From the NCBI GenBank assembly GCA_965113315.1, contig OZ220371.1: a DNA stretch of 64,000 nucleotides; one strand, written 5' to 3'. This DNA comes from Podarcis vaucheri (Eukaryota). Below the pieces are notes generated by a model. It had not been told where the DNA came from. It searched no databases and was given only the letters and a program-made list of their open reading frames with translations. Each line of letters opens with the position of its first letter. The first letter of the stretch is position 1. Shown piece after piece: positions 20,384 to 52,343 of the stretch. The position numbers and the translations under genes were made by a program.

Positions 20384-20707
20384 CAGTGGTGCCTCGCAAG
20401 ACGAAAAGAATCCGTTCTGTGATTCTCTTCGTCTAGCGGTTTTTTCGTCTTGTGAAGCAAGCCCATTGACGGATTAGCGGATTAGCGCTATTAGCGGCTT
20501 ATCTGCTGATCGGATCAGCTGATAAGCGGCTTAGCGGCTTAGAAAAAAGGGGGGAGGAAAAAAAAACAGCAGGAACTCGCAAGACATTGTCGTCTTGCGA
20601 AGCAAGCCCATAGGAGATTCGTTTTGCGAAGCACCTCCAAAACAGAAAACCCTTTCGTCTAGCGGGTTTTCTGTCTTGCGAGGCATTCGTCTTGCGGGGC
20701 ACCACTG
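20384..20707. mobile_element. Tc1/mariner-pogo (Tigger-type) MITE
   Basis: 22-bp TIR CAGTGGTGCC(T/C)CGCAAGACGAA at both ends, TA TSD. Confidence 0.92.
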
Positions 20708-25242: not shown

Positions 25243-26082
25243 TAGGGTTACCAGACGTCCCCGTTTCCCGGAGACAGTCCCTGGATTTGCGAATAAGTCC
25301 CCAGACAAATTTCATCCCTGGAATGTCCCCAGATTTCATCTAATGTCCCCAGGAAACACAGCAGCGGCAGTCTCAGCAGCCTGGAGCAGTTGGCTCTGGC
25401 TGGCTTCAGGAGCTGCTTGGAAGTCCCATTATGATGGTGGTGCAGGGGCTCTAAGATGCAGCTTCCGGGCTGCCTCCACCTTCCTTGACCCCAGCAACTA
25501 AGCTGTGAAGGGAGGCTTCGTGCTGCCTATCGGAGCAGCCTCCCAACTCCTACTTGCGTGCAAGCAGGAGTGGGGTGGGGATCTCTCAGCTGTGAAGAGA
25601 GGCTTCAAGCTGCCTATCAGAGCTTGCGTGCAAGCAGGAAGGAGCAGGGATCTCTCAGTTAGGCAATGGGAAGCCTTGCTTCCCAGCTGAGGGATCCCTC
25701 CCCCTCCTGCTTGCATGCAAGTAGGAATGGGATTGGGGCTGCTCTGATGGGAAGGGAGGCATTATGCTGCCCAAGCCTCGCCGCTGTCGCTGCTCTCGGC
25801 CCTCCTTCTCCACCTTCCATGCTTGACCCACTGCGCACCGCTTCCCCACCACCACCACCACCACCACCGAAGAACTAACAACTCAGGGGCTGCCCAGGCT
25901 CACAGAGAAAGCAGATAGAAGCCTCGGAGGAAGGGGAAATGTGGCGGTTGAGGTCAAAGCAGCGGCTGCCCCTCAGCCACCGCCATCGCTGCAGCATCAA
26001 TGTCCCAAACGTGTATTATTTATTTATTTGTTTGTTTATTTAAAGTGTCCCCGGATTCATTGAAAAAAATCTGGTAACCTTA
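25243..26082. mobile_element. hAT (Blackjack-like) MITE with GC-rich interior, inserted in a CR1 tail
   Basis: TIR TAGGGTTACCAGA / TCTGGTAACCTTA; subterminal gtcccc repeats; degenerate 8-bp TSD CTCTGATT/CTCTGGCT. It splits the CR1 tail ggactagatgggcctctg...tgatccagc. Confidence 0.8.
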
Positions 26083-27524: not shown

Positions 27525-27660
27525 CAGGCATAGGCAAACTCGGCCCTCCAGATGTTTTGGGACTACAATTCCCATCATCCCTGACCACTGGTCCTGTTAG
27601 CTAGGGATGATGGGAGTTGTAGTCCCAAAACGTCTGGAGGGCCGAGTTTGCCTATACCTG
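27525..27660. mobile_element. Short palindromic hAT MITE
   Basis: Near-perfect 136-bp fold-back CAGGCATAGGCAAACTCGGCCCTCCAGA...TCTGGAGGGCCGAGTTTGCCTATACCTG; TSD (A/T)GTTAAAC. Confidence 0.9.
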
Positions 27661-37933: not shown

Positions 37934-38273
37934 GTGAGTTTTCGAGGGGGAAGAAGTAGACCGGGGGAGAATCCGTGTCCATCCTCGGGGAGGGCTTGGG
38001 CTTCTGCTTTGTTTGTTGGATGGAGGCATAGTCAGAAGCCTGTAAGAACAATAGATACGGGTCACAGTGCTTTGTACTGGATCGGTGGAGGGAGATCGTA
38101 CGATATGGAAAACCACTGCTTCTAGTATTCTGTGTGTATGTTTACTAGAACGAATTAAGTCCTTGCATAGGACCCATTTGTGCAATGCATTATGTATATG
38201 AATGTGTGAAAATCGCTTTCCATTAGATCTGTTTTTGTGTTCTGTCTGACGCGTTCAAACTCTTGTGTTTTAG

Positions 38274-38382
38274 ACCACCAAAGAAGATTCCCCGGGTGCC
38301 AGAAAATCTACTGAAAAAAAGAAAGGCGTATCAAGCAATCAAAGCCACCCAAGCAAAGCAGGCGCTGTTGGACAAAAGAAAG
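38274..38382 (+). CDS. RPL7L1: RPL7L1 coding exon 2
   Basis: ttttag| ... |gtaggg; encodes [36 protein letters not shown]. Confidence 0.95.
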
Positions 38383-39477
38383 GTAGGGGAGGCATATTGT
38401 AGGTCAGGACATTGTACGCTCCCCTGATCAGCTCAGGCAGGAATTCCCTTGATCAGGCCAGCTGTAATAAATGTTAGATAAATGATGCATGTAATGTAAA
38501 ATCAGGTTTCAGTTAAAATCCTTGGGAAAAGAGAAGTGGTAGAAATCAAGGGTGTATATCTTTTTGCTTTAGAAGGATGTAGTCTTGCTTACTTGGATTT
38601 GTAGGAAACATTATCACCCTTTTCACCTCTCCAGTATTGTAAGAATAGGTACTCCCTCACAACGTATTCTTAGAATGACTTTTTCTGTCCATCCTTTATC
38701 AAACCTTTTTCTTGAAGTACCTCTGTATGACTCTGTAACCAAGACTTGCTTGAACCATTTTGTGACTGAATCAAACTAGAATGCTCACTTTGATATAAAG
38801 TTCCAAATTCTATCACATCCCATCTACTTTTCCATGGTAACTTGCCTGCCCCAATTGTAGATTAAGCTCCTTAAATTGAAAACCAGCCCTTTTTCTAAAA
38901 GGAAAAAGAAATAACCACATAGGTATTTCAGTTCAGATAGCAGAAATAAGGTTAGGTTAAATTAAGATAATCTGTTGCTATACCGCTTCCAACAAATTTG
39001 GGGTTAAACACCGCCCTGTAACTTATTGTATTGATACAATTGAAAATGCTCAGTTTTCCAATAAATTATTTGACCTTTATATTATCAGTCACTCAGGTGT
39101 GCTTGCTCCCATATTCTTATGCTGTCATCCAGGAAGGGAGTAAGTGTTTTTTCCAGTTATAACAGTAGGCCACATGTTAGCTAGGTATATTATGTGTTTT
39201 GCGGCTGCTGATAAAACACATTGTGAATAGATGTATTGGAAGTTCATATCCTGTTATTGCTTTATTTTGTTTATAACAGTTTCCCTGTATTTTAGGGCAT
39301 AACCCCAAAGATACAAAACTATGATACTCTTCATTGCTGTACAACAGCTGGCATGTCATTGTTCTGAACATTTTGTATTTAAAAAACATGTTTACCATTA
39401 TGTACTGAACTGAGTAGCATACAGATAGTGACTTAAAATAAAGGCATATCTTCTAAAATTTAATTTCCTTATTGTAG

Positions 39478-39641
39478 CATCAGAAAGGAAAACAAATCAG
39501 ATTCAAACGTCTTGAGACATTTTTGCGGGATTCTCATCGGAAACACAGAGATGATGTCCGTTTGAGGCGCATGGAACATAAGCCCCGGCTGCTGCTAATG
39601 CCTGAGGGACACAAACTGGCTTTCGCAGTACGGATTGCAGA
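39478..39641 (+). CDS. RPL7L1: RPL7L1 coding exon 3
   Basis: tgtag| ... |gtaagc; encodes [36 protein letters not shown]...[10 protein letters not shown]. Confidence 0.95.
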
Positions 39642-40507
39642 GTAAGCATCTGTTTGTCATATGTAACTTAGTTTTCCAGCAATCTGCTGGTTTCCACTGC
39701 TTTGCTCATTCTAGTTTTCCGATTTGTGCAGATTATGTGGATTGTTTTTTTAAAAAATAAGTTACCGTCCATGGACATGTTTGCAGAAGAGTGAATTGGT
39801 GGTATTGATGAATTATGACAGAACAAAAAACCTTCTTGAACTGAACACTGAATAAAAGCAATAACAGCAAACCTTGGCTTCCTGCTTTTGGTTTGTTTGA
39901 GTGAAGCAAACCATGAGCATTGGTTTGGACATTTTGCTAAGCCCAAGGGTAGGGGATTTGATCCAACGATGTGACAGGTTCCTGATGTCCCCCCTCCCAC
40001 ACCCATAGTGCACTTCAAAATGTAGGCAGGGGCACCCATCAGATGTCATTATGACACCAGGTTAAGCTTTTTTCCTTTACAGAAGGGCTTGATTTCAATG
40101 GACCTTTGGACAACAAAGCACTTCTTGCTTCGACAATTGGGGCCTGCACTTACTGCTGTCAAATCCGGTTTGCAGAGAAACGGGCCCCTTATTGTCCCTT
40201 TACAGTTATGATTTTACCCACTCCACAACTGATGGCAAAGGAGTAGCTCTGGCTAGAGAAAAACAGCCTTGTGGGCCAAATATGACCTGTGGGCTGGAGG
40301 TTCCCTATGCCTCCGCTAAGCCCAGGGCTCATAGTTTGTTGCTTCCTGCTGAATGGAGAAATGAAACATCGGGCTGTAGCTTTAGGACACAACTTTCAAG
40401 AAAATGTAAAAAGGTGATTGTTAATGCATATCTATATTTGTTTCTGCTGACTATGGAGCTTTCTGTCCAAGGGGAGAATTTGGCTGATTTCTTCTACTTT
40501 GCTTTAG

Positions 40508-40645
40508 AATTAAAGGTGTGAGCCTACGCGTGCGGCATGTCATACATAGGCTACGGTTGAGAAAGATTTACAGTGGCACGTTTGTTAAATTGTCACCAAC
40601 ATCTCTGAAAATGCTGCGTACTGTGGAGCCTTATGTGGCATGGGG
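40508..40645 (+). CDS. RPL7L1: RPL7L1 coding exon 4
   Basis: tttag| ... |gttagt; encodes [46 protein letters not shown]. Confidence 0.96.
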
Positions 40646-40845
40646 GTTAGTACAACTTTTATTTTTGTGTGTGGGAGGGATGGTTAAAGGCAATGAAATG
40701 AATATAAAAGGCACCATAACTTCGAAAAAGTTAAGTAGATTTCTTTTTTGCATGCTAATACTGGCATGTCAGGAAAGATGAACTGGCAAGTACAAAACTG
40801 CTCTCAATCTATTTTTCTGTGACCTTTTTGAGGATGGGGATGGAA

Positions 40846-40901
40846 TCTCTCTCTCTCTCTCTCTCTCTCCCTCTCCCTCTCTCTCTCTCTCTGTGTGTGT
40901 G
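40846..40901. repeat. (CT)n(GT)n compound microsatellite
   Basis: Seen directly in RPL7L1 intron 4. Confidence 0.9.
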
Positions 40902-41525
40902 TTACTGCTGCCTTTGGAAATGGTACAATCATCCAGGGCTTATTAGCCTGACTTTAAATATAGCTATATATACATTTGATATATTTAGTGTGGGTCTTTT
41001 TATCTGTTGACATCAATAGATGTTTTGTATGAAGGTGGGTTAACAGCATAATATACATTTGTGCAGGGGGTTAATTATGCAACACAGGTTGGGCTCAGAT
41101 CAGGCGGCATTTGCAGTCTGCTTCAAAGAAGATTTTGTGCATTTGTCTTCTGAAAACAATTTAGGCATGAATATGCTGCAATAATCCACTTCGTAACTGA
41201 ACTATAAAATAGGCTGTTAATACAACATCAAAACTTTGATTATAAAAATACATGCCACAATGCATTCTGTCTTGGAGCAGTAGTTTGCACAAATCTTGCC
41301 TAGTTCTATACCTTGAGTCCCATTGAGAAGAGGTATGTTCTAAGGATGGCGGGAGTATTAAAAACAAGTAGGAAACTGTTTCATACTGTGCTTTAAAATG
41401 ACTAGTGTTGTGGCCATTCTATAGGAGCTAAATAGCAGTTACTTACCAAGTAAGTTGCCATTTTGGAAGGATCTTGTAGTTTTTGAAAAATTCTCCAGCA
41501 ACATCACCACTAATTTTGTTTACAG

Positions 41526-41635
41526 TTATCCGAACCTGAAATCTATTCGAGAGTTGATCCTGAAACGAGGCCATGCAAAGGTCAATAAGAAAAAGCTTGC
41601 TTTGACAGACAACATTCTGATAGAGGAGCATTTGG
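41526..41635 (+). CDS. RPL7L1: RPL7L1 coding exon 5
   Basis: ttacag| ... |gtaaga; encodes [37 protein letters not shown]. Confidence 0.96.
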
Positions 41636-41769
41636 GTAAGAGATTTTATGTAGGGGAGGACACTAAGCTTTGGGGCAGCATGTGCGTTATTGTGATCTAA
41701 GAAAAGGGTAGTGAAATGACCAAAGAAATTGGATGTTACTGTGTTTCTAAAATCATTTCTCCCTCTTAG

Positions 41770-41978
41770 GAAACTCCGGTATTATTTGTTTGGAAGATCT
41801 TATTCATGAAATTTACTCAGCTGGGAAACATTTTCATGAAGTCAACAACTTCTTGTGGCCGTTCCACCTGTCAGTAGCTCGCCACGCCGCCCGCAATAAA
41901 GCAGGGTTCCACAAAGAGATTGGTGATACTGGATTTCGAGGTAGTGGAATCAACAAACTCATCCGTCATTTGAACTAG
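41770..41978 (+). CDS. RPL7L1: RPL7L1 coding exon 6 (stop TAG at 41976-41978)
   Basis: cttag|; encodes [14 protein letters not shown]...[13 protein letters not shown]...INKLIRHLN*. The LSVARHA motif distinguishes RPL7L1 from RPL7. The spliced CDS is 744 nt (247 aa). Confidence 0.96.
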
Positions 41979-42839
41979 GCTCAGGTGGGTGCTCTAACAC
42001 CGGCTTTTATGGATTTCAATTACTGCTTAGTTATATGTTAAAAATGGTCTTGGAGTTCCTTACGAAGAATGGCCATAGTTCAGAAAAGTGGACCACATCT
42101 CAAATTATTCATTGTGCTGTTGGATTGTGAAATTTATAGGAAGATAAGGAAGCCAAAACCATCAAGTTTCAATCTCGGGGTATAAAACCAGAAGATGGGA
42201 GTGATCTGAAGTTTGACTCCTCAGCATCTTAAATTTGCAGGATTGGGTAGCAGAGTTGGACCTCCTGTAGAGTACAGAGACTGATGAACTGATGGTCTGG
42301 GCCAGAATGAGACAAGTTCGTGTGACTTCATATTCAGTTGTCCTCATGTTTGGCAGCTTCTGGTAGATTCCAGTAAGTTGTATTCAAAAAACAGAGCAGG
42401 ACTAAAAGTTTACTCTGCAGTGGATCATACTTTATAAAAATCCACATGGTTTGTGTATATTATGTCATATGCTTCAGAGAAAGGTGGAGAAAATTCCCGT
42501 CAGTAGTAATAGTAGTTTAGGTTCTTACATACTATGAAAGCATAACTAACTGGCAATTCATAACCCCAATTCATTTAAAGAGCAGTTAAATCCAAGCAGC
42601 ATCTTAAGTTCTCAGTGTTTTGAGGTGGGTTTTTTAAACTGTTCAGGATTCCATCTCCAGTTACACTGCATGTTTGTGTGCTAGACAGTAATGAGTTTAA
42701 CTCTCAACAGCAACTTCCTTGTATACTTTTTTTCCAGCTCAGTCATAAAAGTAACATTTGCTTTTAATATTTTTCCAACAGCTTTCTTCAGTAGGCACTA
42801 AACATAATTATAGTGATTTCTTTTTACTTTTTCTAACAG

Positions 42840-43950
42840 GTTATGAACGTTATTAAGGATGTTCTGGAAGATATTTATTTGTACTCCATGATGTACATTG
42901 GCTCTTCAGAGACGCCTGAGACTGCAACATGACAATACTTCTGTTCCTTTCTCTGTCTCACTGTGTGATGGTGAAACTACATTTCCATAGTTGAGTTGAA
43001 AGAGATCCAAGATGTGATTTAAATGTTATCCTGCACATAGAATGGAAAAAGAATGGAAGAACTCCTAAAATTCCACTTGCACAGCCCTCTGAAATTAATA
43101 TATTGCTTACAACAGTGTTTCCCAAACGTTTTTGGGCAACGGCACACCTGTTTACCGGAAAAAAATCTCGCGGCACACCACCATTAAAGCCCCGCCCCGT
43201 GACGTCAGCGCGCAGCGTCACGCCGGGAGGGACGCACAAAAGTGAACGTTTTTTCCCTTCCCCTTGCCGGGGTGGGAGGAGGCAGCAGAGCGAGGGACTG
43301 AGCGGCGGCTGAGGCGGCTGTTGTGGTGGTGGCGGCGATAGCGGGCGGAGGAGGAGCCGTCGCCGGGAGTTGCTGCTGTTGCTGCTGCTGCCCGGACATG
43401 CCGGCCTCCTCCTCCTCCGCTGTCTCGCGCTCCTCCCTTTTGCGTGCGCTGCCCCGCCGCTCGGCACCACCACCGCGGAGCCGCCCCCGGCTCGACGCGG
43501 ATCCTCGCCGCCGCCGCCTCTCGCCCGCCTCCCTCCCACGGCACACCAGCCGGTGTCTCACGGCACACTAGTGTGCCGCGGAACACCGGTTGGGAAACAC
43601 TGGCTTACAAAGACAGTGGGGATGTTTTGAAACCCAGCAATGCTTTTTGCATGGAGTTTCATTATGCATTTTGAATACAAAAGTGGGAAAACTTGGCATT
43701 TTTAAGATGCACGCTTGGGAGTAGGAAACCTAATATGATCTAAACCTGGTGATCATATTCTGCAGGAATATCCTGAACATGTCAGGATCCTCTTCCCAGA
43801 TTGCTTGAATTGGCTGGCAAGTAGTTGATGCCTTAAATTCTCCTGTCAAACCCTTTGGTCAGCCCATGTCTAAAATAGCCACTTTGAACGTAGTTTTCAA
43901 ACTTCTTTTGTATGTAAAGTCTCGAATAAAAAGATTTATTAAATTTTTGC
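42840..43950 (+). other. RPL7L1: Putative RPL7L1 terminal non-coding exon (3'UTR)
   Basis: Donor CAG|GTGGGT at 41984/41985; acceptor tttctttttactttttctaacag| at 42839; AATAAA at 43925-43930 followed by a GT-rich tract. Confidence 0.55.
43113..43602. mobile_element. hAT-Charlie-like MITE carrying CpG-island-like cargo
   Basis: 13-bp perfect TIR CAGTGTTTCCCAA; perfect 8-bp TSD GCTTACAA (43105-43112, 43603-43610); subterminal CGGCACAC repeats. Confidence 0.93.
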
Positions 43951-44103
43951 TTTGTGGTGCTTGCTTATATACCATCAACTATCTCCCCTTGTCCACCCTC
44001 CTGGCATAAATAAACTTGGGGAAAAACCTAGTTTTTTCATTAGCCATTAGTAGAGCTGCAGAGGGAAACATTAAGCTAGAGACAATTTGTCAGGATGGCA
44101 GTA

Positions 44104-44322
44104 CAGTCATACCTGGGTTGTCAAATGCCTTGTGAGGCGAACGTTTTGGCTTCCGAATGCTGCAAACCTGGAAGTGAGTGTTCCGGTTTGCAAACATTCT
44201 TTGGAATGCGAATGTCTGATGCTGCTTCCCATTGAGTGCAGGAAGCTCTTGCAGCCAATCGGAAGCCACGCCTTCGTTTTCGAAAGTCGAACAGATTCAG
44301 TTCAAGAACCAAGGTATGGCTG
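44104..44322. mobile_element. Tigger-type MITE, degraded
   Basis: TA + CAGTCATACCT ... AGGTATGGCTG termini; related copy at 47520-47670. Confidence 0.7.
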
Positions 44323-44610
44323 TGTATATATAGATGCCAATATTTTAGTGAAAACGCTCCACAGCAATTAAAATCAGTAGGAAAAACTCATTGGTGCCAA
44401 TCCTAGGTGTCTTAAGCCTAACAGCTACAGTATGTGCAGGGCTGTGAGCCAGATCAAGCTGATATTTCCAGTCCCTAAGGTTGTAATATTCTTGCTAACC
44501 TTCGCCACAACACAGACAAAATTAAGTAGTTTATTGGCAGTAGACTCACCTAAGTAAATATAGGCAGCTATACAGGACACTTATGATACAAAGATCAGTT
44601 GAAGTTCTAC

Positions 44611-44616
44611 TTTATT
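44611..44616 (-). terminator. MAD2L1: Candidate MAD2L1 polyadenylation signal
   Basis: AATAAA on the minus strand about 255 nt past the stop codon; a second one lies at 44530-44535. Confidence 0.55.
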
Positions 44617-44871
44617 TTTTTATCCTACAAAATACAATTAAAAACATTCAGTCCACACTCCTGTAATAACCAGAGTGAGGAAATTCAGTCGCATATCAAA
44701 TAACAGAATTTCAGCATTCATTCTTAGAAATATATCCACAGTATATTTAAGCTATGTACAAAGTATGTTTTCCCTGTTAGTTTTACTGGAACACAAAGGA
44801 TCTATGCAGAATGTAATTACTATTTGCTAAAGAAGTTAAGAGGAAGCTTATGTACAGTCTTATTTGCAGAG

Positions 44872-45044
44872 TCAGGGGAAGCTGTCCTTTTTGTAGGCCA
44901 CCATACTGTTGACTTTGTGTATTGTAGTTGTGAAGGAACGAAGACGAACTTCTTCAGAGTTAGCAATGAACTGTGGACCAGACTCTTCCCATTTTTCTGG
45001 AACAGCTAAGTCTTTGTCTGTGAAAATCAGCAGGTCAAATGCAC
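44872..45044 (-). CDS. MAD2L1: Mitotic spindle checkpoint protein MAD2A, coding exon 5 (stop)
   Basis: ttgcag|; encodes CAFDLLIFTDKDLAVPEKWEESGPQFIANSEEVRLRSFTTTIHKVNSMVAYKKDSFP*. The spliced CDS is 618 nt (205 aa). Confidence 0.97.
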
Positions 45045-45413
45045 CTGCAAGGAAAAACCCAGTGTTACTAGATTTATATTGCATGCCTATATTCTAAATT
45101 CATTTTTAAGGGTAGAATAAAATTGTATGCTTGTATTTAAAATTCAAGCACATTCATACTTTTTCTGTATTAATGCTGCAATAATACATTAATTGAACCA
45201 AATTAGGACTGGATCATTCATTCATATCCATCACTTGATGGCTAACTACAATATGTTGAAATTGGATTATCAGAACTGCAGTTTACTGAACGAGTGTTAA
45301 CCAGATTTAGGGTCATTGTCTAGTTTTAATGCCTCCAAACAATTTTACTGATGCAGCCCACTACACTTACAGCCTTCCTTCCCATGAAAGACCCCATCTA
45401 TGTTATGTCAACT

Positions 45414-45668
45414 TAAAGTGAGGTTACAAGGAACCAGACAGAGGGCCTTCTCGGTAGTGGCGCCCGCCCTGTGGAACGCCCTCCCTTCAGATGTGAAGGA
45501 AATAATCAGCTATCTTCTTTTTAAAAGACATCTGAAGGCAGCCCTGTTTAGGGAAGTTTTTAATATTTAATGCTGTATTGTTTTTAACACTTGATTGGAA
45601 GCCGCCCAGAGTGGCTGGGGAAACTCAGCCAGATGGGCGGGGTATAAATAATAAAATTATTATTATTA
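45414..45668 (+). mobile_element. L2 3' end in MAD2L1 intron 4
   Basis: Close match to the 3' end of the L2 at 11661-11930; (ATT)n tail. Confidence 0.9.
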
Positions 45669-46190
45669 ATGTGAATCACTTTCATTGAACTTTTGACAGC
45701 ATTTTCTGCAAACAGCAGCAGTCTGCTTGTTTGAATTGCTGTGAAGTGTGAGTAAGCGGGCGGGATGAGGGTGATAAGCCTCTTCCCTTCCACCCTATAA
45801 CTGTTCCTGCTATCCCACCCTATTTTCTTTCCAACAGGTGTTACACCTGATCTCAGAGCACCACTGAGAAAAGGCTGGGGAGAGCATGGGCAGGGAAAGG
45901 ATACAGCACCATCCAGTTTGAAGAGACTATTTTGCAGCTGTTCAGCCCACTCAGATTTTATAAAATAATATGGCATCATCTGAAAATTAACTCATTGTTC
46001 ACCTTATGCCAGATAAATTGTTTACATCCCTTAAATGTTTGGCAATGCACTTCTTTACAGAAATTCGGTTGTATGTGAAAATGTATCAAGTTGCAGTACT
46101 CATTTCCTTGCTCTGTAGCCTATACTATGAATAAGCCCCCAAATAGATTTGCTGCATTCTGTCAAGAGCATCAAGTGACAAGATACTTAC

Positions 46191-46294
46191 ATGTTGTTTC
46201 TAGTAAAGGAAGGAAAGTTACTGTGGCTGTTATCTGTCTGATAACAGATTTTATTTCATCCTGTATAGCTTTCTGAGATTTCTCTCTCGGTGCA
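46191..46294 (-). CDS. MAD2L1: MAD2L1 coding exon 4
   Basis: ttttag| ... |gtaagt; encodes APREKSQKAIQDEIKSVIRQITATVTFLPLLETT (104 nt). Confidence 0.97.
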
Positions 46295-47163
46295 CTAAAA
46301 TAGCAATCAAAAGCTGTCATTAAACAAGTCTGACATCATAAATTAACAAAGCTATTAGTTTTTTACATAGTAAATATCCACTGGTCCAAATTATATGCCA
46401 TGTTTGGTGTGGTTGCTTTGCAGGTTTCCATTGCCTATGCCAGGGAGGCAGAACCATTGGCTTACAGGCCAAGTTAGGCCTGGCAGACCCTAAACCTACT
46501 CCACATCTGATGTCCTATGCAACACCAGAGGTGGGACAGGAACAATTAGCAGCCTTACAGTTACACTTCTGGCAAGCCCACTTCAGGCAGGTATGTGCTA
46601 GGCTATAGAATTTTGGACTTTTTACTCCAAGTGCAGTCAATACCTGACTATAAATTGTGGCTTGGTGAATTCAGAGCAGTGATGAAAGGGAAAAGCTTAC
46701 TTTCGGTCACTTGATGTCATGCAATTGACAGGACATACCCATCTGTCAGAATGGTCCACGAGGGTGGGGTAGGGTGGCGGAGGTCAGGAGCTGGTCTGCC
46801 GGTCAAATCTTTTCCCCCACTCCTAGCCTACATCTATAGCATTTTACTTGTGTGCATTTGCTACTGACACCCCAGGCCTTAGAATGCAGTAGCTGACCAC
46901 TTTGCAACGACAACCCTTGCTTTACTCATTTGCAAGCCACGTCTCCCCCTTAGGAAGTCCCCATTTTGAAGGAGGCAGCTACATATCTCTATATCCACAA
47001 GCATATCCATATCATCCATCTCTACAAGACAATTAAGTTGTCACCACAATTTACCATATGCTTTTTTGGGCCTGGGGTGAGGGAAGAGCACATTTTGAAT
47101 ACAAAGCTGAATAAATGCCTACATTTTGCGTTGTTTGAAACAATGGTGTTTGAATGCACTTAC

Positions 47164-47284
47164 CTTTCATCCTTTGCAGCTTTGTCACATTCAATGTCAA
47201 ACTGCCACCTTTCCAGAACTTCACTGGTTTCTTTACTGGAGATCACCACTACTAGCCGCTGAACTAGGCATTCATAGAGCCATT
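47164..47284 (-). CDS. MAD2L1: MAD2L1 coding exon 3
   Basis: cccag| ... |gtaagt; encodes EWLYECLVQRLVVVISSKETSEVLERWQFDIECDKAAKDE (121 nt). Confidence 0.97.
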
Positions 47285-47519
47285 CTGGGAAAAAAACCAA
47301 GACGAAAAATAGCTTCCCAGAAGTCCCAGTGTTACACACCCTTAAAACATTTTAAACCACCTGAAATAAACACTACTACTGTCTTTCTGCAAACTATTAA
47401 CCATACAGGCAACCTGCAGTTTATAGGATACACATGGTACACTTGATGTAGGAAGCCTGATGTGCAAGAATTATGCCAGAACTTCAACTAAATAAAAATT
47501 TCAAACAGTATTCCTATAT

Positions 47520-47670
47520 AGTCAATCCTTGGCTCCCAAATGCCAAAAACCCGGAAGTAACTGCTCCGGTTTTCTCCATTGACTTTGCCCTTTGATCCTT
47601 GGTTGTCAAATGTTTTGGAAGTCGAAAGGTCTTCCGGAACAGATTACGTTCAACAACTGAGGTTTGACTG
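47520..47670. mobile_element. Degraded Tigger-type MITE in MAD2L1 intron 2
   Basis: Shares cc(c/t)ggaagt, ggttgtcaaatg and aagtcgaa blocks with 44104-44322; ends gaggtttgactg. Confidence 0.55.
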
Positions 47671-48749
47671 AACATAAATGAGGTGACTTAATTTTATACA
47701 CGAGGAATGGCCAACTTCTGTATTCTTGGTAGTGGACCTGTTTTTCTAAATTGCTTGGGAGTCCACAGTATGTTTTGCCACACAAACTTATCTCCTTATA
47801 TGGCTTCAGGCTTTACCAGTTGCTCCCATCTAGCAGTAGTGATTTCAGAGTTCTGGAACATATATGCAAGGTATATACAAATTACAAAGGTAATACAAAT
47901 GTATTACCAACACCCATTATTGAGGTTGCTGCTAACTGCTCCCATCGTGAAAAAGGACTCTAAGAATAAAGGAGTGTTTACCTTTGTACTATCTTCTGGA
48001 GACTGCAGAAACAGCACTTCACTGATGCAAAAGCCCAATAAAGATGAGTTTATCTACCTTTCCATTTCTTTAAAAAGGAAGTGTCTGCTCAGCTTCAACT
48101 GATTCTCCAACTATGTCCCTTCCTAAAGAACACAAATCTGGCCAATTGCTGCATCCAGGTTAGATTACTGAAAGGAGCTGCCCTTATAAGAGCATTTAGA
48201 AACTACAATCAGTGCAAAATTTGGTGGCCAGAATACTTTCTGGTGCTCACTATTCAGATCATGTTACCAGTCTTATTCCATCAGCACTGCTTCCAGTTTG
48301 TTTCTAGGTCTAATTCAAGGTGCTGGCAGGACCCCAGTTGTGGAACCCTCTCCTACGTAAGTCTAACTGAACCTATATTTGATGGTTTTTAGGCAGGCAG
48401 ACAATACATTTTTCTTCTGTTATGATTTTAAAGGTTAGTAATCCTGCTTTTCTGATGTCTGCCCTTTAAGTGATTGAATAGAAAAGAAACAAGAGGTGGC
48501 ATAAGATTTTGCTGAGAGCACATAGGCACTGTCATCCAAAGAAAGATCTTGTATTCATCTACTTTGTGCAATTTTGACAACAATATTTTCTTTAAGGGAA
48601 ACTGCTGAAAGTTTTAAAACTACGTTTTGGCCAATTTGTTGAGCTACTAGGGTCATTTTAAATTATTGTAAGTCTGAGGACAGGGACTGTGTTGTTTTCT
48701 TAATCTCTATGCAGTAATAAGAAAACTGTCAGGAAATAATAAAAAATAC

Positions 48750-48896
48750 CTTTTAGCTGTCCCACCACATTGTTCAGATAATTTTTAAGTTCAGAGTCTG
48801 CAGTTACAAGCATAGTAAGTCCATATTTCTGAACACGTGTAAATGTTTCAGCAGGATAGATCCCACGCTGGTATAAGATACTGTTGATACCATATG
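48750..48896 (-). CDS. MAD2L1: MAD2L1 coding exon 2
   Basis: ctag| ... |gtattt; encodes SYGINSILYQRGIYPAETFTRVQKYGLTMLVTADSELKNYLNNVVGQLK (HORMA domain, 147 nt). Confidence 0.97.
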
Positions 48897-50389
48897 CTAG
48901 AAGGGAAAAAAATATTCAAGTGTTAACAATACAAGGACCATCACCTTACTTTTAAATTCCTTCAGTTGCTTCCAGCAGAAAGCATAGCATGTGCCTGTTT
49001 TTATAAGTGGCAATCTTCTCTGCGGGGCAGAGATAATGGCTCAAGGGGCAGAGTTCATGCCAGGTGCCAAAGCTATTGGCCGACAAAATTGGAATTAGCA
49101 GTCTATTATTTTATTCTGGCTACAAACCAGTAGCACACATAGCATGGTTATTTTAAAGAGTCACCCTTTTTTCAACATACAGTTTAAAAGTTTAAAATGA
49201 AAGCAGATAAGGACTCTAATAATTGCACATGTGGTCATTTTGGTCAGGGCAACTTCTAATTTAATACTACAGTGAGTAGGTTAAAGCTACACTTGCCAAA
49301 AATCTTACATTGTTACCTTTAAAACGTAACTTCACATTGTTTATTTTTTAATGAAAGCAATCATCTTTAGACCTAAGTTTGTGTCGAAGGTTATTTGTAC
49401 ACCTCCAACTTTATGTTTGCTATCTGTATCATAATTTTTCCTTACACCTAGAACTGAAATTGCACAGCTCATAGAATACTTGATTAAATGATATCAGGTG
49501 GACTTATGCAAAATGTGAAACAGGTAATGCTGCTCTCTCACAATACTTCAATTAGATGAAGTAATATGGCAAGCGTTTGTAAATCAATGTCTACAAGGGC
49601 TTATGGCTGAGGGATACTAACTTGAAGGGAAGCTTAAGCCAAACCACAAATGCTCATAACTGGCCCAAGAGTGGACAAATTGGAATAAGCATGCTTATTT
49701 TAAAGAGTTACCCTTTTTCCGATATAAAGTTTAAAATGAAAGCAGATAAGGACTCTAAGGAGAACAGGCAGTGCAATCCAGTGCTTTTGTCCACAAAGCT
49801 GGGAAAACTCACCAGCGCGGTGCTACAGACGTGTGTGACTATCAACATCTAAAACAACCAAGTCTTGTGGTACCTTATATTTATTACAGCTATAAGCTTC
49901 TGTGAAGTACACAACCAAGGAGGTTGACGGCGCAATACTACAGGTGCCTGCTCAGAAGCACGTTCTTTTCAAGGGCGCTTACTCCCGGGCAAACGAGTGG
50001 AGCTCCTTACCTTGGAAAGCTACTCCACGCATAGCCATTAAGGTTTTTCTCTCTCTTTTATATTGCGATGCAAACTTTTGCTGGCACGCTGTGGGGCGCT
50101 ATACCCTCAGCAACAGGATGTTTGTGTAAAGCAAATAAATCAACGTGGGGGAAAGTAAAGGAAAAGAGAAGAAAGGATGGCTGCCCTATGCTGCGTCCCG
50201 CTCCTTCCCCTCCAGCTCGGGCGCCCTCATTCCCTCGCAGCAGCATCCCCTCCTCCCGATCCTAAGCGGGCGTCCCTACTCGGAAGTAAAGCCCCTTGGA
50301 TTCAGCGGGGCTTACTCCAGAGTAAGCGGCTCCCCTAGGAGCAGCCCGCTCAACCGAGTCCCTCCTCTCTCCTTTCCCGGCTAACTCAC

Positions 50390-50462
50390 AGAAAAACTCG
50401 GCGACGATCTCGGCGCTGCCCCGCAAGGTGATGCCCTGCTCCCGGCTCTGCTGCTTCGCCAT
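50390..50462 (-). CDS. MAD2L1: MAD2L1 coding exon 1
   Basis: ATG at 50462; encodes MAKQQSREQGITLRGSAEIVAEFF; donor |gtgagt. Confidence 0.97.
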
Positions 50463-50745
50463 TCGAAGAGGACGAGGCGGCGACGGGGGTTGAGCTCGGA
50501 CTCCGGGCGATCTTCCCGCCACCTGATTCAAAATCCAGTTCCGCCTGCTTCGCGTCGCGCGAGAGTACAAGGCAACAGAGGGCGCACCCCCGTTGCGCGT
50601 GCGCAGCAGGAAAAGGGGGGTGGGGCCAACAGCAATGCAAGCGTCGTTATCCCCGACGCCCGTGTGCCGTAAAGCGTTCTGGTGCCTCTAGCCTATAGAA
50701 ACGCGCATGCGTGAAATCTTTGAGCTATTCCGCCCCCACGTCCCT
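50463..50745 (-). promoter_or_regulatory. MAD2L1: MAD2L1 CpG-island promoter / 5'UTR
   Basis: CHR motif TTTGAA (50527-50532, minus), E2F-like TTCCCGCC (50513-50520), NRF1 motif TGCGCACGCGCA (50594-50605, minus), GCGCATGCG near 50703 and a GC box. Confidence 0.72.
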
Positions 50746-52343
50746 TCATGGTGGTTGATTAGGGAGCTCCGTGGGTTTTTGTTAATAACGGGGAGAAGCG
50801 GGGATCCATTCTTGTTTCTCATAAGGAGAGGTTTTTATTGTTTGGGGTGTATTTTTTTTCTCTAGGGAAGGGGTTGGTGCAAACTAAAACCTTACTTGAA
50901 ACATGCAGGCGTTTCAGCTTTAAAAGTTAGAGCGCTGGAGCACGTGGCAAAAAAAGAAAATACTGTACGCTGAAGCTTATTAGCAAATAAAATTAATGTA
51001 AACTTCTGTGCAGTGTGATTGCCACTTCCCCTTTTTAGATTTCAATTAAATTCCCTTAATATATTTTACGATTTTTAAAAAGCCTACTTTTTGAACTAGG
51101 CATTGTTCTAGGAGCGAGGTGGGTCTCAATCCTGCATCTTCAGCGCACCTCTTTATCCTTGCTTTTGCTACCGGAGATGTGTATTTTAGGAGCCCGCTTT
51201 ATTTTTCTGTGTTAAATCATTTGCAACATGGGGTCTTCTTTTGTCGTTGGATCCCACCTGGGACCTTATCGTTAAGGGTGGGTAACTAATAAGCATAAGG
51301 GTCAGCATTTTATTATTATTAACAACAATTATATTATTTTCCACTTTTTATTTAGAGGTTGTAAGGCTGCTGAAGTATTTTGGGGCTTCATGATGTCTTT
51401 TGGGGGAAAATGCTGTACCTACAGGGGTACACGAAAGGGTTCCAAAAAGATATATGGCAGAATTTAGGCTGGATAATCTTCAAATTAACCTTCCAAGAAG
51501 AGGTACACCATTAAGTCTAAACTTTCAAAAGGAGTATATGGTTATTTTAAGTTTGGGAAACACTGCATTAGCAACAACAACAACAAATTTGTACCACACC
51601 CATCTGACTGGGTTGCCATAGTAAGGCAGGTATTCAGCCACAACCCCTAAAATCTCAGGAATTAAAAATGCCCCAGGAATACTTAGTGGATTGATTAAAA
51701 ATATAAAATGAAAACAGGCGATACTTCTCTATATGTTCAAAATGCAGTAACAGAATAAAAAGGAAACTAGGCTTGAGAGCCTCATGTGGAGTAGCAGAAT
51801 GTTTATTTAAAATATTTTTTTTAAGCTCTTCAATGGGTTCCAGAGTTGTGTTTAATAGATTTCTAGATAAAAATATTAGAGTATTTGTAGTCCACCAAGG
51901 GGTTTTACATTCTTCAAGTAAGAGTGCATATTGGGTGCATTTGGAAGGCATAACTAATACTCTGGGAAGAGAGTTCTTGCCATTTAACAACAATAATGCA
52001 TTGCTTAGTATTCAGTGCAAGAATTGTGATCTATCCTTTTCACACCCCAGTAAACAAATGGTAATAGCCTTTTATATCAAGGATGTTTGGTGCCACAGTT
52101 TATTTTCTTCGGGACTTAAGTGTATCTCTAATAACAGGATATGATGATGTGGGCTTTAATCAACAAAAAGTCCACCTTTGATAAAAGGAATTGAGTCTGT
52201 AAGGTACTATGAGGCTCATTGTTTGCTGCAAGGGTATCTAACATGGCTGCCCATTGACAGTTTGGGCAGTGGTCTTGAAATATATTGAAGAAAATAAACT
52301 TTTAATGGTCATGGGCATTTAGACCACACTAATCAATATAGAT

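Follow-up and report, generated by a model that had tools for sequence, protein, structure and literature searches.

A likely recent and polymorphic Buster-type hAT MITE with a GC-rich interior in the probable 3′UTR exon of RPL7L1

Introduction

Non-autonomous hAT families that are young and abundant and whose interiors are unrelated have already been described from a lizard genome, that of Anolis carolinensis, among them the orphan families hAT-N3_AC, hAT-N4_AC and SPIN_NA (Novick et al., PMC3014272). Anole hATs with terminal inverted repeats (TIRs) similar to those reported here use the target NYYTARRN (PMC3014272), and the target of TcBuster is nnnTAnnn (PMC3499496). TcBuster belongs to the Buster subfamily together with AnBuster, SPIN/Charlie and the ZBED5/FAM200-like transposases (PMC3499496, PMC12637253). 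Elements that carry foreign sequence have been treated as Pack-TIRs, defined by an internal sequence of 100–5,000 bp between the ends of one TIR element and by a parental copy that is at least 90% identical and unique and has TE-free flanks (Tan et al., 2021, PMC8277862). Four multicopy Pack-TIRs were reported in that study, one of them a frog hAT with a 5′UTR in three copies (PMC8277862).

Here, we describe an element in a 64,000-nucleotide stretch of DNA (the window), which an earlier sequence-only reading had taken for a young hAT MITE carrying the captured 5′ end of a host gene. Judging by SINE-like repeats in the window, the host presumably belongs to a lizard lineage other than Anolis. 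The element is an ordinary high-copy hAT MITE of the lizard type, and for the copy at 43113–43602 the reading of its interior as cargo is not supported.

Materials and methods

Four public runs, out of 24 runs found, were aligned to positions 41980–44060 of the window at 80% likeness. Three of them (X1, X8 and X3) are DNA-type and fall under two species labels: X1 and X8 carry the same label and come from different samples, and X3 is from organism B. The fourth, X23, is an RNA run from organism F, under a third species label, of which about 12% was read; its RNA therefore stands for another species, one that carries the empty allele. X1 is probably the window's own source sample and is therefore not independent, and X8 and X3 are other samples.

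Results

A compact element with perfect ends

Direct reading of the sequence placed the element at 43113–43602 (490 bp). Its TIRs, CAGTGTTTCCCAA at 43113–43125 (+ strand) and the right TIR at 43590–43602 (− strand), are 13 bp long and agree at 13/13 positions, and the target-site duplications (TSDs) of 8 bp at 43105–43112 and 43603–43610, both GCTTACAA with a central TA, agree at 8/8, so that the perfect TIR and TSD of the sequence-only reading were confirmed. Empty sites retain one TSD copy (498 nt skipped, that is, 490 + 8). A pair of a perfect 13-bp TIR and an 8-bp TSD occurs once within the whole window and in none of 20 block-shuffled windows, and self-BLAST found no second full copy of the element in the window.

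The left subterminal region (43126–43182, + strand) consists of a T-run, GGCACAC at 43141, an A-run and GGCACAC at 43172, a layout found in 6/6 left ends of related hAT elements, the alignment of which has 24 invariant columns. On the right (43534–43589, + strand), the end alignment delimits a subterminal region that contains a GGCACAC (43540) and a palindromic block of 21 bp (43561–43581), the latter identical in 7/7 aligned ends and itself the search pattern. The subterminal motifs bearing GGCACAC are likely transposase-binding sites. Motif reading further placed an ATTAAA hexamer, a putative alternative poly(A) signal in a + strand exon, at 43183–43188, where some other copies of the family differ, and a GC-box-like run, a full CRE (43200–43207) and a second CRE half-site at 43190–43222 (+ strand); the half-site and the CRE form a small inverted repeat. 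Depth and a predicted long imperfect hairpin (see below) mark 43262–43540 as the GC- and CpG-rich interior, the standard body of the family, in which G-rich triplet runs stand opposite C-rich triplet runs with a CTG run (43369–43391) between them.

Elsewhere in the window, a solo 15-bp match to the same TIR lies upstream of MAD2L1 at 51551–51565 (− strand), and a TIR/TSD scan of the window found no partner end for it. Other small DNA elements are a 136-bp hAT MITE at 27525–27660 (TSD 7/8), a 324-bp TA-flanked element at 20384–20707 and an inverted-repeat-bounded element at about 44103–44323, between RPL7L1 and MAD2L1. An Rfam scan of 38000–52000 gave no match at the gathering score.

The ends align with those of Buster-type hAT elements

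The target at 43105–43112 has the central TA of the nnnTAnnn type, and loose ends at the TIRs of other copies gave the consensus CTCTAGAG (right end in X1, both ends in X23). Because this consensus fits both nnnTAnnn and NYYTARRN, it points to the Buster type. A 21-nt right-subterminal pattern matched 43 metagenome loci, and a 44-nt degenerate end pattern matched none; a central TA was present in the flank of 31 of the 35 loci with a readable end. Four of the 43 loci are full-length elements of 2.3–2.75 kb, two of which hold intact ORFs of 628 and 649 aa that are 42% identical to each other. The first ORF (628 aa) was placed by the Atlas with ZBED5-like and FAM200C clusters (0.98), and the Pfam scores of the two transposases lie just below the curated cut-offs (21.2 vs. 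21.4 and 23.6 vs. 27.3).

Both ends of six related elements align with the ends in the window, with the same TIR, T-run and GGCACAC spacing, and BLASTN similarity to the 43 loci is limited to element positions 424–490, the last 67 bp. These alignments set the cis-acting ends at about 70 bp each and the filler at approximately 43183–43533. Judged by its ends, which are homologous to those of elements with ZBED5/FAM200-like transposases, the element is a non-autonomous Buster-type hAT MITE.

Among the metagenome loci, L002 (353–3006) and L012 (349–2987) are intact-looking Buster-type elements with the same end layout, and relative to these ends their transposase ORFs run in opposite orientations. 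L008, L023, L037 and L038 (307–359 bp) show apparent compound ends, in which a short MITE abuts the right end of a relative and the flanks are mismatched. In X23, 16 RNA reads (14 starts) join 43602 to 43113 via the 8-mer CTCTAGAG. Such a joint probably stems from two copies in head-to-tail tandem, inserted at a single target and transcribed. In X23, loose ends preceding 43113 further resemble another hAT end, which hints at stacked insertions.

The interior is shared by a high-copy family

Flank depth was 77–80 in X1 (left flank), 21 in X8 and 87 in X3. Relative to the flank, summed contig depth over the interior bins 43240–43519 was 5,057–8,727-fold in X1, 3,074–5,765-fold in X8 and 5,620–10,836-fold in X3, and it was 14,657–23,263-fold in the two end bins; summed depth is not copy number, since short overlapping contigs are added together, and alignment at 80% likeness may pull in GC-rich simple repeats that inflate it. 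Division by the worst-case 31-fold overlap left an interior floor of 99–350, so that the family numbers no fewer than about a hundred to several hundred copies, with low thousands plausible. Matching contigs numbered 4,105 in X1, 1,228 in X8 and 5,221 in X3. In X1, 2,832 of the 4,105 contigs were at least 95% alike, showing the high copy number and homogeneity that a MITE requires.

With its high copy number in each of the three DNA-type runs, the interior is not unique cargo. It is the standard body of a high-copy family and not a one-off capture. The sequence-only reading had proposed the 5′ end of a host gene as cargo, which, taken strictly, would mean that an empty MITE gained a single-copy gene 5′ end at 43113–43602. 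The appearance of the interior is the one point in favour of this proposal, which fails against the high copy number in 3/3 DNA-type runs and the presence of the interior in the RNA reads of the third species label; we consider it almost certainly wrong.

Depth in the end bins was 2–5 times that of the interior, and sister families that share the ends but differ inside were revealed by loose ends at 43158, 43520 and 43556. This depth contrast and the loose ends indicate that the family is modular, with shared ends and variable interiors. Moreover, the copies include triplet-length variants at 43312, 43370 and 43536. No donor-like loose end was present among the rows listed for the four runs; a single-copy donor contig could be hidden among a further 260 loose-end rows and 10,545 contig pieces.

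The bin containing 43190–43222 reached a summed depth of about 15,000–20,000 times that of the flank, and it therefore belongs with the end region that the family has in common. The second subterminal motif is followed immediately by the GC box and CRE, and their bin matches the shared ends in depth. This arrangement favours the possibility that the MITE came from a lizard autonomous Buster through internal deletion and that the interior, or just the left portion carrying the GC box and CRE, was native to that Buster as its promoter or UTR. Deletion derivatives indeed make up most of the non-autonomous hATs of the anole (PMC3014272), and for the left 100 bp this possibility overlaps the explanation that we prefer below. 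However, the four full-length relatives are all AT-rich and lack any GC box or full CRE in their left ends, and the transposase ORFs of the full-length relatives lie in either orientation to the ends; the GC-rich interior is therefore unexplained by these relatives. In addition, no lizard autonomous copy was seen among the metagenome loci and the four runs. A native promoter is accordingly an unlikely source of the interior in our estimation.

Composition, folding and possible origin of the interior

The element has the composition of a CpG island, with a GC content of 0.68, 56 CpG and a CpG observed/expected ratio (o/e) of 1.0 over 490 bp. For the interior at 43185–43537, GC was 0.72 and CpG o/e 0.98, compared with 0.42 and 0.33 for the whole window, consistent with the very GC- and CpG-rich interior that had been claimed. 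The further sequence features of that claim were likewise recovered: the GGC/GCT/CCT triplet runs, the adjacent GC box and full CRE at 43190–43207, where the CRE, TGACGTCA, stands beside the GC-box-like run, and a CATG at 43397–43400 with ORFs both ways, its position and both translations being correct. For these motifs, which were chosen post hoc, dinucleotide shuffling produced a CRE in 11 of 2,000 sequences, a GC box alone in 1,473 of 2,000 and a CRE adjoining a GC box in 1 of 2,000.

An ATG-ORF of at least 64 aa arose in 1,220 of 2,000 shuffles, indicating that the ORFs of the element are of chance length; a coding first exon as the interior was rejected on this ground. Protein searches, whose negatives are weak because the queries are of low complexity and the searches are blind to non-coding donors, found no match for P0002 (the minus frame with the MSGQ ORF) among 8,000 longer candidates or in 1.84 billion representatives, for P0003 (the plus ATG ORF) among 1,982 protein candidates, or for P0005 among 495 protein candidates. 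P0001 had no usable Atlas match, none of P0001–P0005 belonged to a Pfam family (P0004 by Pfam scan only), and P0006 had no sequence match in the PDB. The element is short and non-coding (490 bp, chance-length ORFs, no protein or Pfam match), as a MITE requires.

Folding predictions gave the interior a long, imperfect hairpin with the CTG run at its centre, both as RNA (z = −7.7, 0/100 shuffles) and as DNA (z = −6.5, 0/100 shuffles). This prediction survived block shuffles (0/60 in each) and separate shuffling of the arms keeping 2-, 3- or 4-mers (0/80; z = −4.7, −5.1 and −2.9). Three control windows at the MAD2L1 and RPL7L1 promoters folded normally (z = +1.3, +0.3 and −1.8). Direct alignment of arm against arm was weak, its score being reached by 24 of 1,000 and 84 of 1,000 shuffles; with so marginal an alignment, a fold-back duplication was rejected as a proven event.

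Composition of this kind would also suit a founder capture, in which the ancestor of the family took a host CpG-island promoter or 5′UTR once and was then amplified to hundreds or thousands of copies. The triplet runs and CpG richness resemble vertebrate 5′UTRs, the rarity of a CRE beside a GC box in the shuffles points the same way, none of the 43 related hAT loci matches the interior, and sister families hold other interiors in the same ends. There is precedent as well: multicopy Pack-TIRs favour GC-rich sequence, the frog hAT-N8_XT having taken the CAPSL 5′UTR (PMC8277862), and anole hATs pick up extraneous DNA (PMC3014272). Nevertheless, self-complementarity sets the interior apart from the two host promoters, and the loose ends listed at its left boundary (43194) enter hAT subterminal motifs, not host DNA. 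Interior reads in X23 at 80% likeness were about equal by strand (37–59 vs. 21–57), not in the one-strand excess expected of an expressed donor 5′UTR, and the products of four of the six frames lacked a protein match, a weak argument where the donor is non-coding. We therefore hold a founder capture to be possible but improbable.

A second, older hAT-like element with another end type lies at 25243–26082 (840 bp; TIR 12/13, flanks 6/8 alike). Its triplet-run interior has a GC content of 0.60 and a CpG o/e of 0.31–0.37 and folds on itself (z = −6.9), so that the same anatomy, a GC-rich self-folding interior in hAT-like ends, is seen twice in 64 kb. For the copy at 43113–43602, one private interior change was listed, CG to TG at 43445, which hints at past methylation of the copy. 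Given this change and the o/e of 0.31 in the older element, youth rather than shielding from methylation is the likely cause of the high CpG content.

A young insertion in a probable + strand terminal exon

In X1, both junctions of the insertion were present and no empty-site joint was seen. In X8, which has the species label of X1, one contig jumps from 43104 to 43603, and in X3 (organism B) a joint runs from 43106 to 43605, both skipping 498 nt, the length of the element plus one TSD copy. Furthermore, 28 RNA reads of X23 (organism F), with 20 starts, run across the same empty site. Empty sites in a sample of the same label and in two relatives make the insertion a young one, which is likely polymorphic within one species label or else fixed in no more than a sublineage. 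The proposed check for insertion polymorphism thus gave a filled site in X1 and an empty one in X8 under the same species label, and the claim of a young non-autonomous hAT element is borne out by its perfect ends and by the empty sites in X8, X3 and X23.

The flanking genes had been named correctly as RPL7L1 (best PDB match, E = 2.5e-25) and MAD2L1 (MAD2A match from an upstream exon, E = 8.7e-22). The last coding exon of RPL7L1 (41770–41984, + strand), delimited by the PDB match and by zero X23 depth after it, has its stop TAG at 41976–41978, and a candidate splice donor GT follows at 41985, 6 nt past the stop. The last coding stretch of MAD2L1, by sequence reading, occupies 44872–45093 (− strand), with its stop 1.27 kb from the element.

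RNA depth in X23 was zero on 41980–42819, stood at about 20–65 on one strand from bin 42820–42889 to about 43880 and faded by 43940. The first mate of the exon reads lay on the − strand throughout, which in most stranded libraries denotes + strand RNA. Together with a pyrimidine-rich candidate acceptor (AG at 42838–42839) and an AATAAA at 43925–43930, these reads outline a terminal exon at 42840–43945 (+ strand) that hosts the insertion and is likely the spliced 3′UTR of RPL7L1. The exon measures about 0.6 kb when empty and about 1.1 kb when filled, and the insertion lies 273 nt from its start. RPL7L1 thus appears to have an intron (41985–42839) beginning 6 nt after the stop and a wholly untranslated terminal exon, whose junction to the coding exon we infer. 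Under the 50-nt rule, an intron this near the stop would escape nonsense-mediated decay. No − strand RNA was seen in X23 on the flanks up to 44060, and the MAD2L1 messenger therefore ends further right in X23. At 43925 the + strand reads AATAAA, and 10 bp away, at 43935, the − strand holds its reverse; the RNA that X23 shows there is of the + strand alone.

A strictly intergenic position was rejected, because the + strand exon crosses the empty site in a relative. The sequence-only reading had placed the element between two convergent genes; this holds for the coding sequences and fails otherwise, since the empty site is inside the + strand exon in X23. Its suggestion that the RPL7L1 3′UTR might be altered gains from the same observation, the exon in the relative being a terminal one.

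Whether the copy does more than lengthen this exon was weighed against RNA of the whole family. As an orphan CpG-island promoter the copy could give antisense RNA into MAD2L1 or RPL7L1, or its ATTAAA at 43183, which is followed by a U-rich stretch, could shorten the RPL7L1 messenger. A CpG o/e of 1.0, similar to the 1.03 of the MAD2L1 promoter island, and the CRE and GC box are consistent with such activity. However, interior depth in X23 amounted to about 80–105 reads for the whole family, approximately twice that of the single RPL7L1 tail exon (40–60), and was spread over both strands; 76% of the aligned reads continued into unlike sequence, and no start pile-up occurred within the element in this one run, about 12% of it read, from a species with the empty allele. 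For this one run, such reads look like copies transcribed as parts of other RNAs and unlike a single expressed donor 5′UTR or a strong family promoter. With the methylated past hinted at by the CG to TG change at 43445 as a further point against it, a role of the copy as a promoter or poly(A) site is very unlikely.

Discussion

The likely explanation of the locus is a recent, polymorphic insertion of a high-copy Buster-type hAT MITE with a standard GC-rich interior, which acts as a passive passenger and lengthens the spliced 3′UTR of RPL7L1. A ZBED5/FAM200-like transposase made elsewhere in the genome would bind the TIRs and the GGCACAC motifs, within about 70 bp per end, excise the element and paste it into an 8-bp nnnTAnnn target. 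The interior would then probably be dispensable filler made inside the element, through internal deletion or the repair of gaps, through fold-back copying and through slippage of triplets. We infer this internal origin; building of the filler by fold-back, as proposed, would explain the self-complementarity of the interior. At RPL7L1, the 3′UTR would gain 498 nt and, as predicted, an imperfect hairpin of 280 nt, most likely with little or no effect.

In a bolder form, the founder capture would mean that a lizard Buster MITE family, having taken up a host CpG-island promoter a single time, spread it with its CRE, its GC box and a hairpin of 280 nt to hundreds or thousands of sites, of which some are still polymorphic within species; we regard this as distinctly doubtful. 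Its consequences would be considerable. If a host donor were found, the family would be a Pack-TIR of far higher copy number than those reported (PMC8277862), and its many young CpG-rich copies would allow tests of de novo CpG-island formation. A true founder capture would thereby provide a natural allelic series for what makes CpG-rich DNA a working island in a reptile. Under the preferred explanation of a passive high-copy MITE, presence or absence between samples of one species label offers a homoplasy-poor marker, and the filled and empty alleles form a natural test of a hairpin insertion in the 3′UTR of a ribosome-biogenesis gene.

No published description of the family was found in the literature searched, which consisted mostly of non-subscription journals, with Repbase and Dfam outside its scope; the family may still have been described. 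Compared with Pack-hAT-N8_XT, which carries the CAPSL 5′UTR, the family similarly has a GC-rich interior of about 300–350 bp in hAT ends, several insertions with distinct TSDs and possible chimerism with a host UTR (PMC8277862), and the approximately 350 bp at 43183–43533 fall within the internal length of a Pack-TIR. In contrast to that frog element, it has at least hundreds of copies rather than three, and no parental copy has been identified (PMC8277862). For the family to count as a Pack-TIR, a parental copy would have to be identified.

Like the Buster subfamily, the element shows an 8-bp nnnTAnnn target, short TIRs and a dependence on subterminal sequence (PMC3499496, PMC12637253); unlike an autonomous Buster, the element at 43113–43602 has no transposase gene. 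The closest described kin are the orphan hAT-N families of the anole, a kinship set by description and not by family identity. The CpG-rich self-folding interior found here is not part of the description of the anole families, with which it is likened by description only (PMC3014272). The TIR of hAT-N3_AC, CAGTGGTTCCCAACCT, and CAGTGTTTCCCAA belong to the same TIR class (PMC3014272). The 8-bp TSD pattern NYYTARRN and the length of a few hundred base pairs are also shared with the anole families (PMC3014272), several of which exceed 1,000 copies, and the family described here is likewise high-copy (PMC3014272). Finally, as in the anole, where families resemble autonomous elements at their ends only and diversify through uptake of extra DNA, common ends here enclose interiors that differ from one family to the next (PMC3014272).
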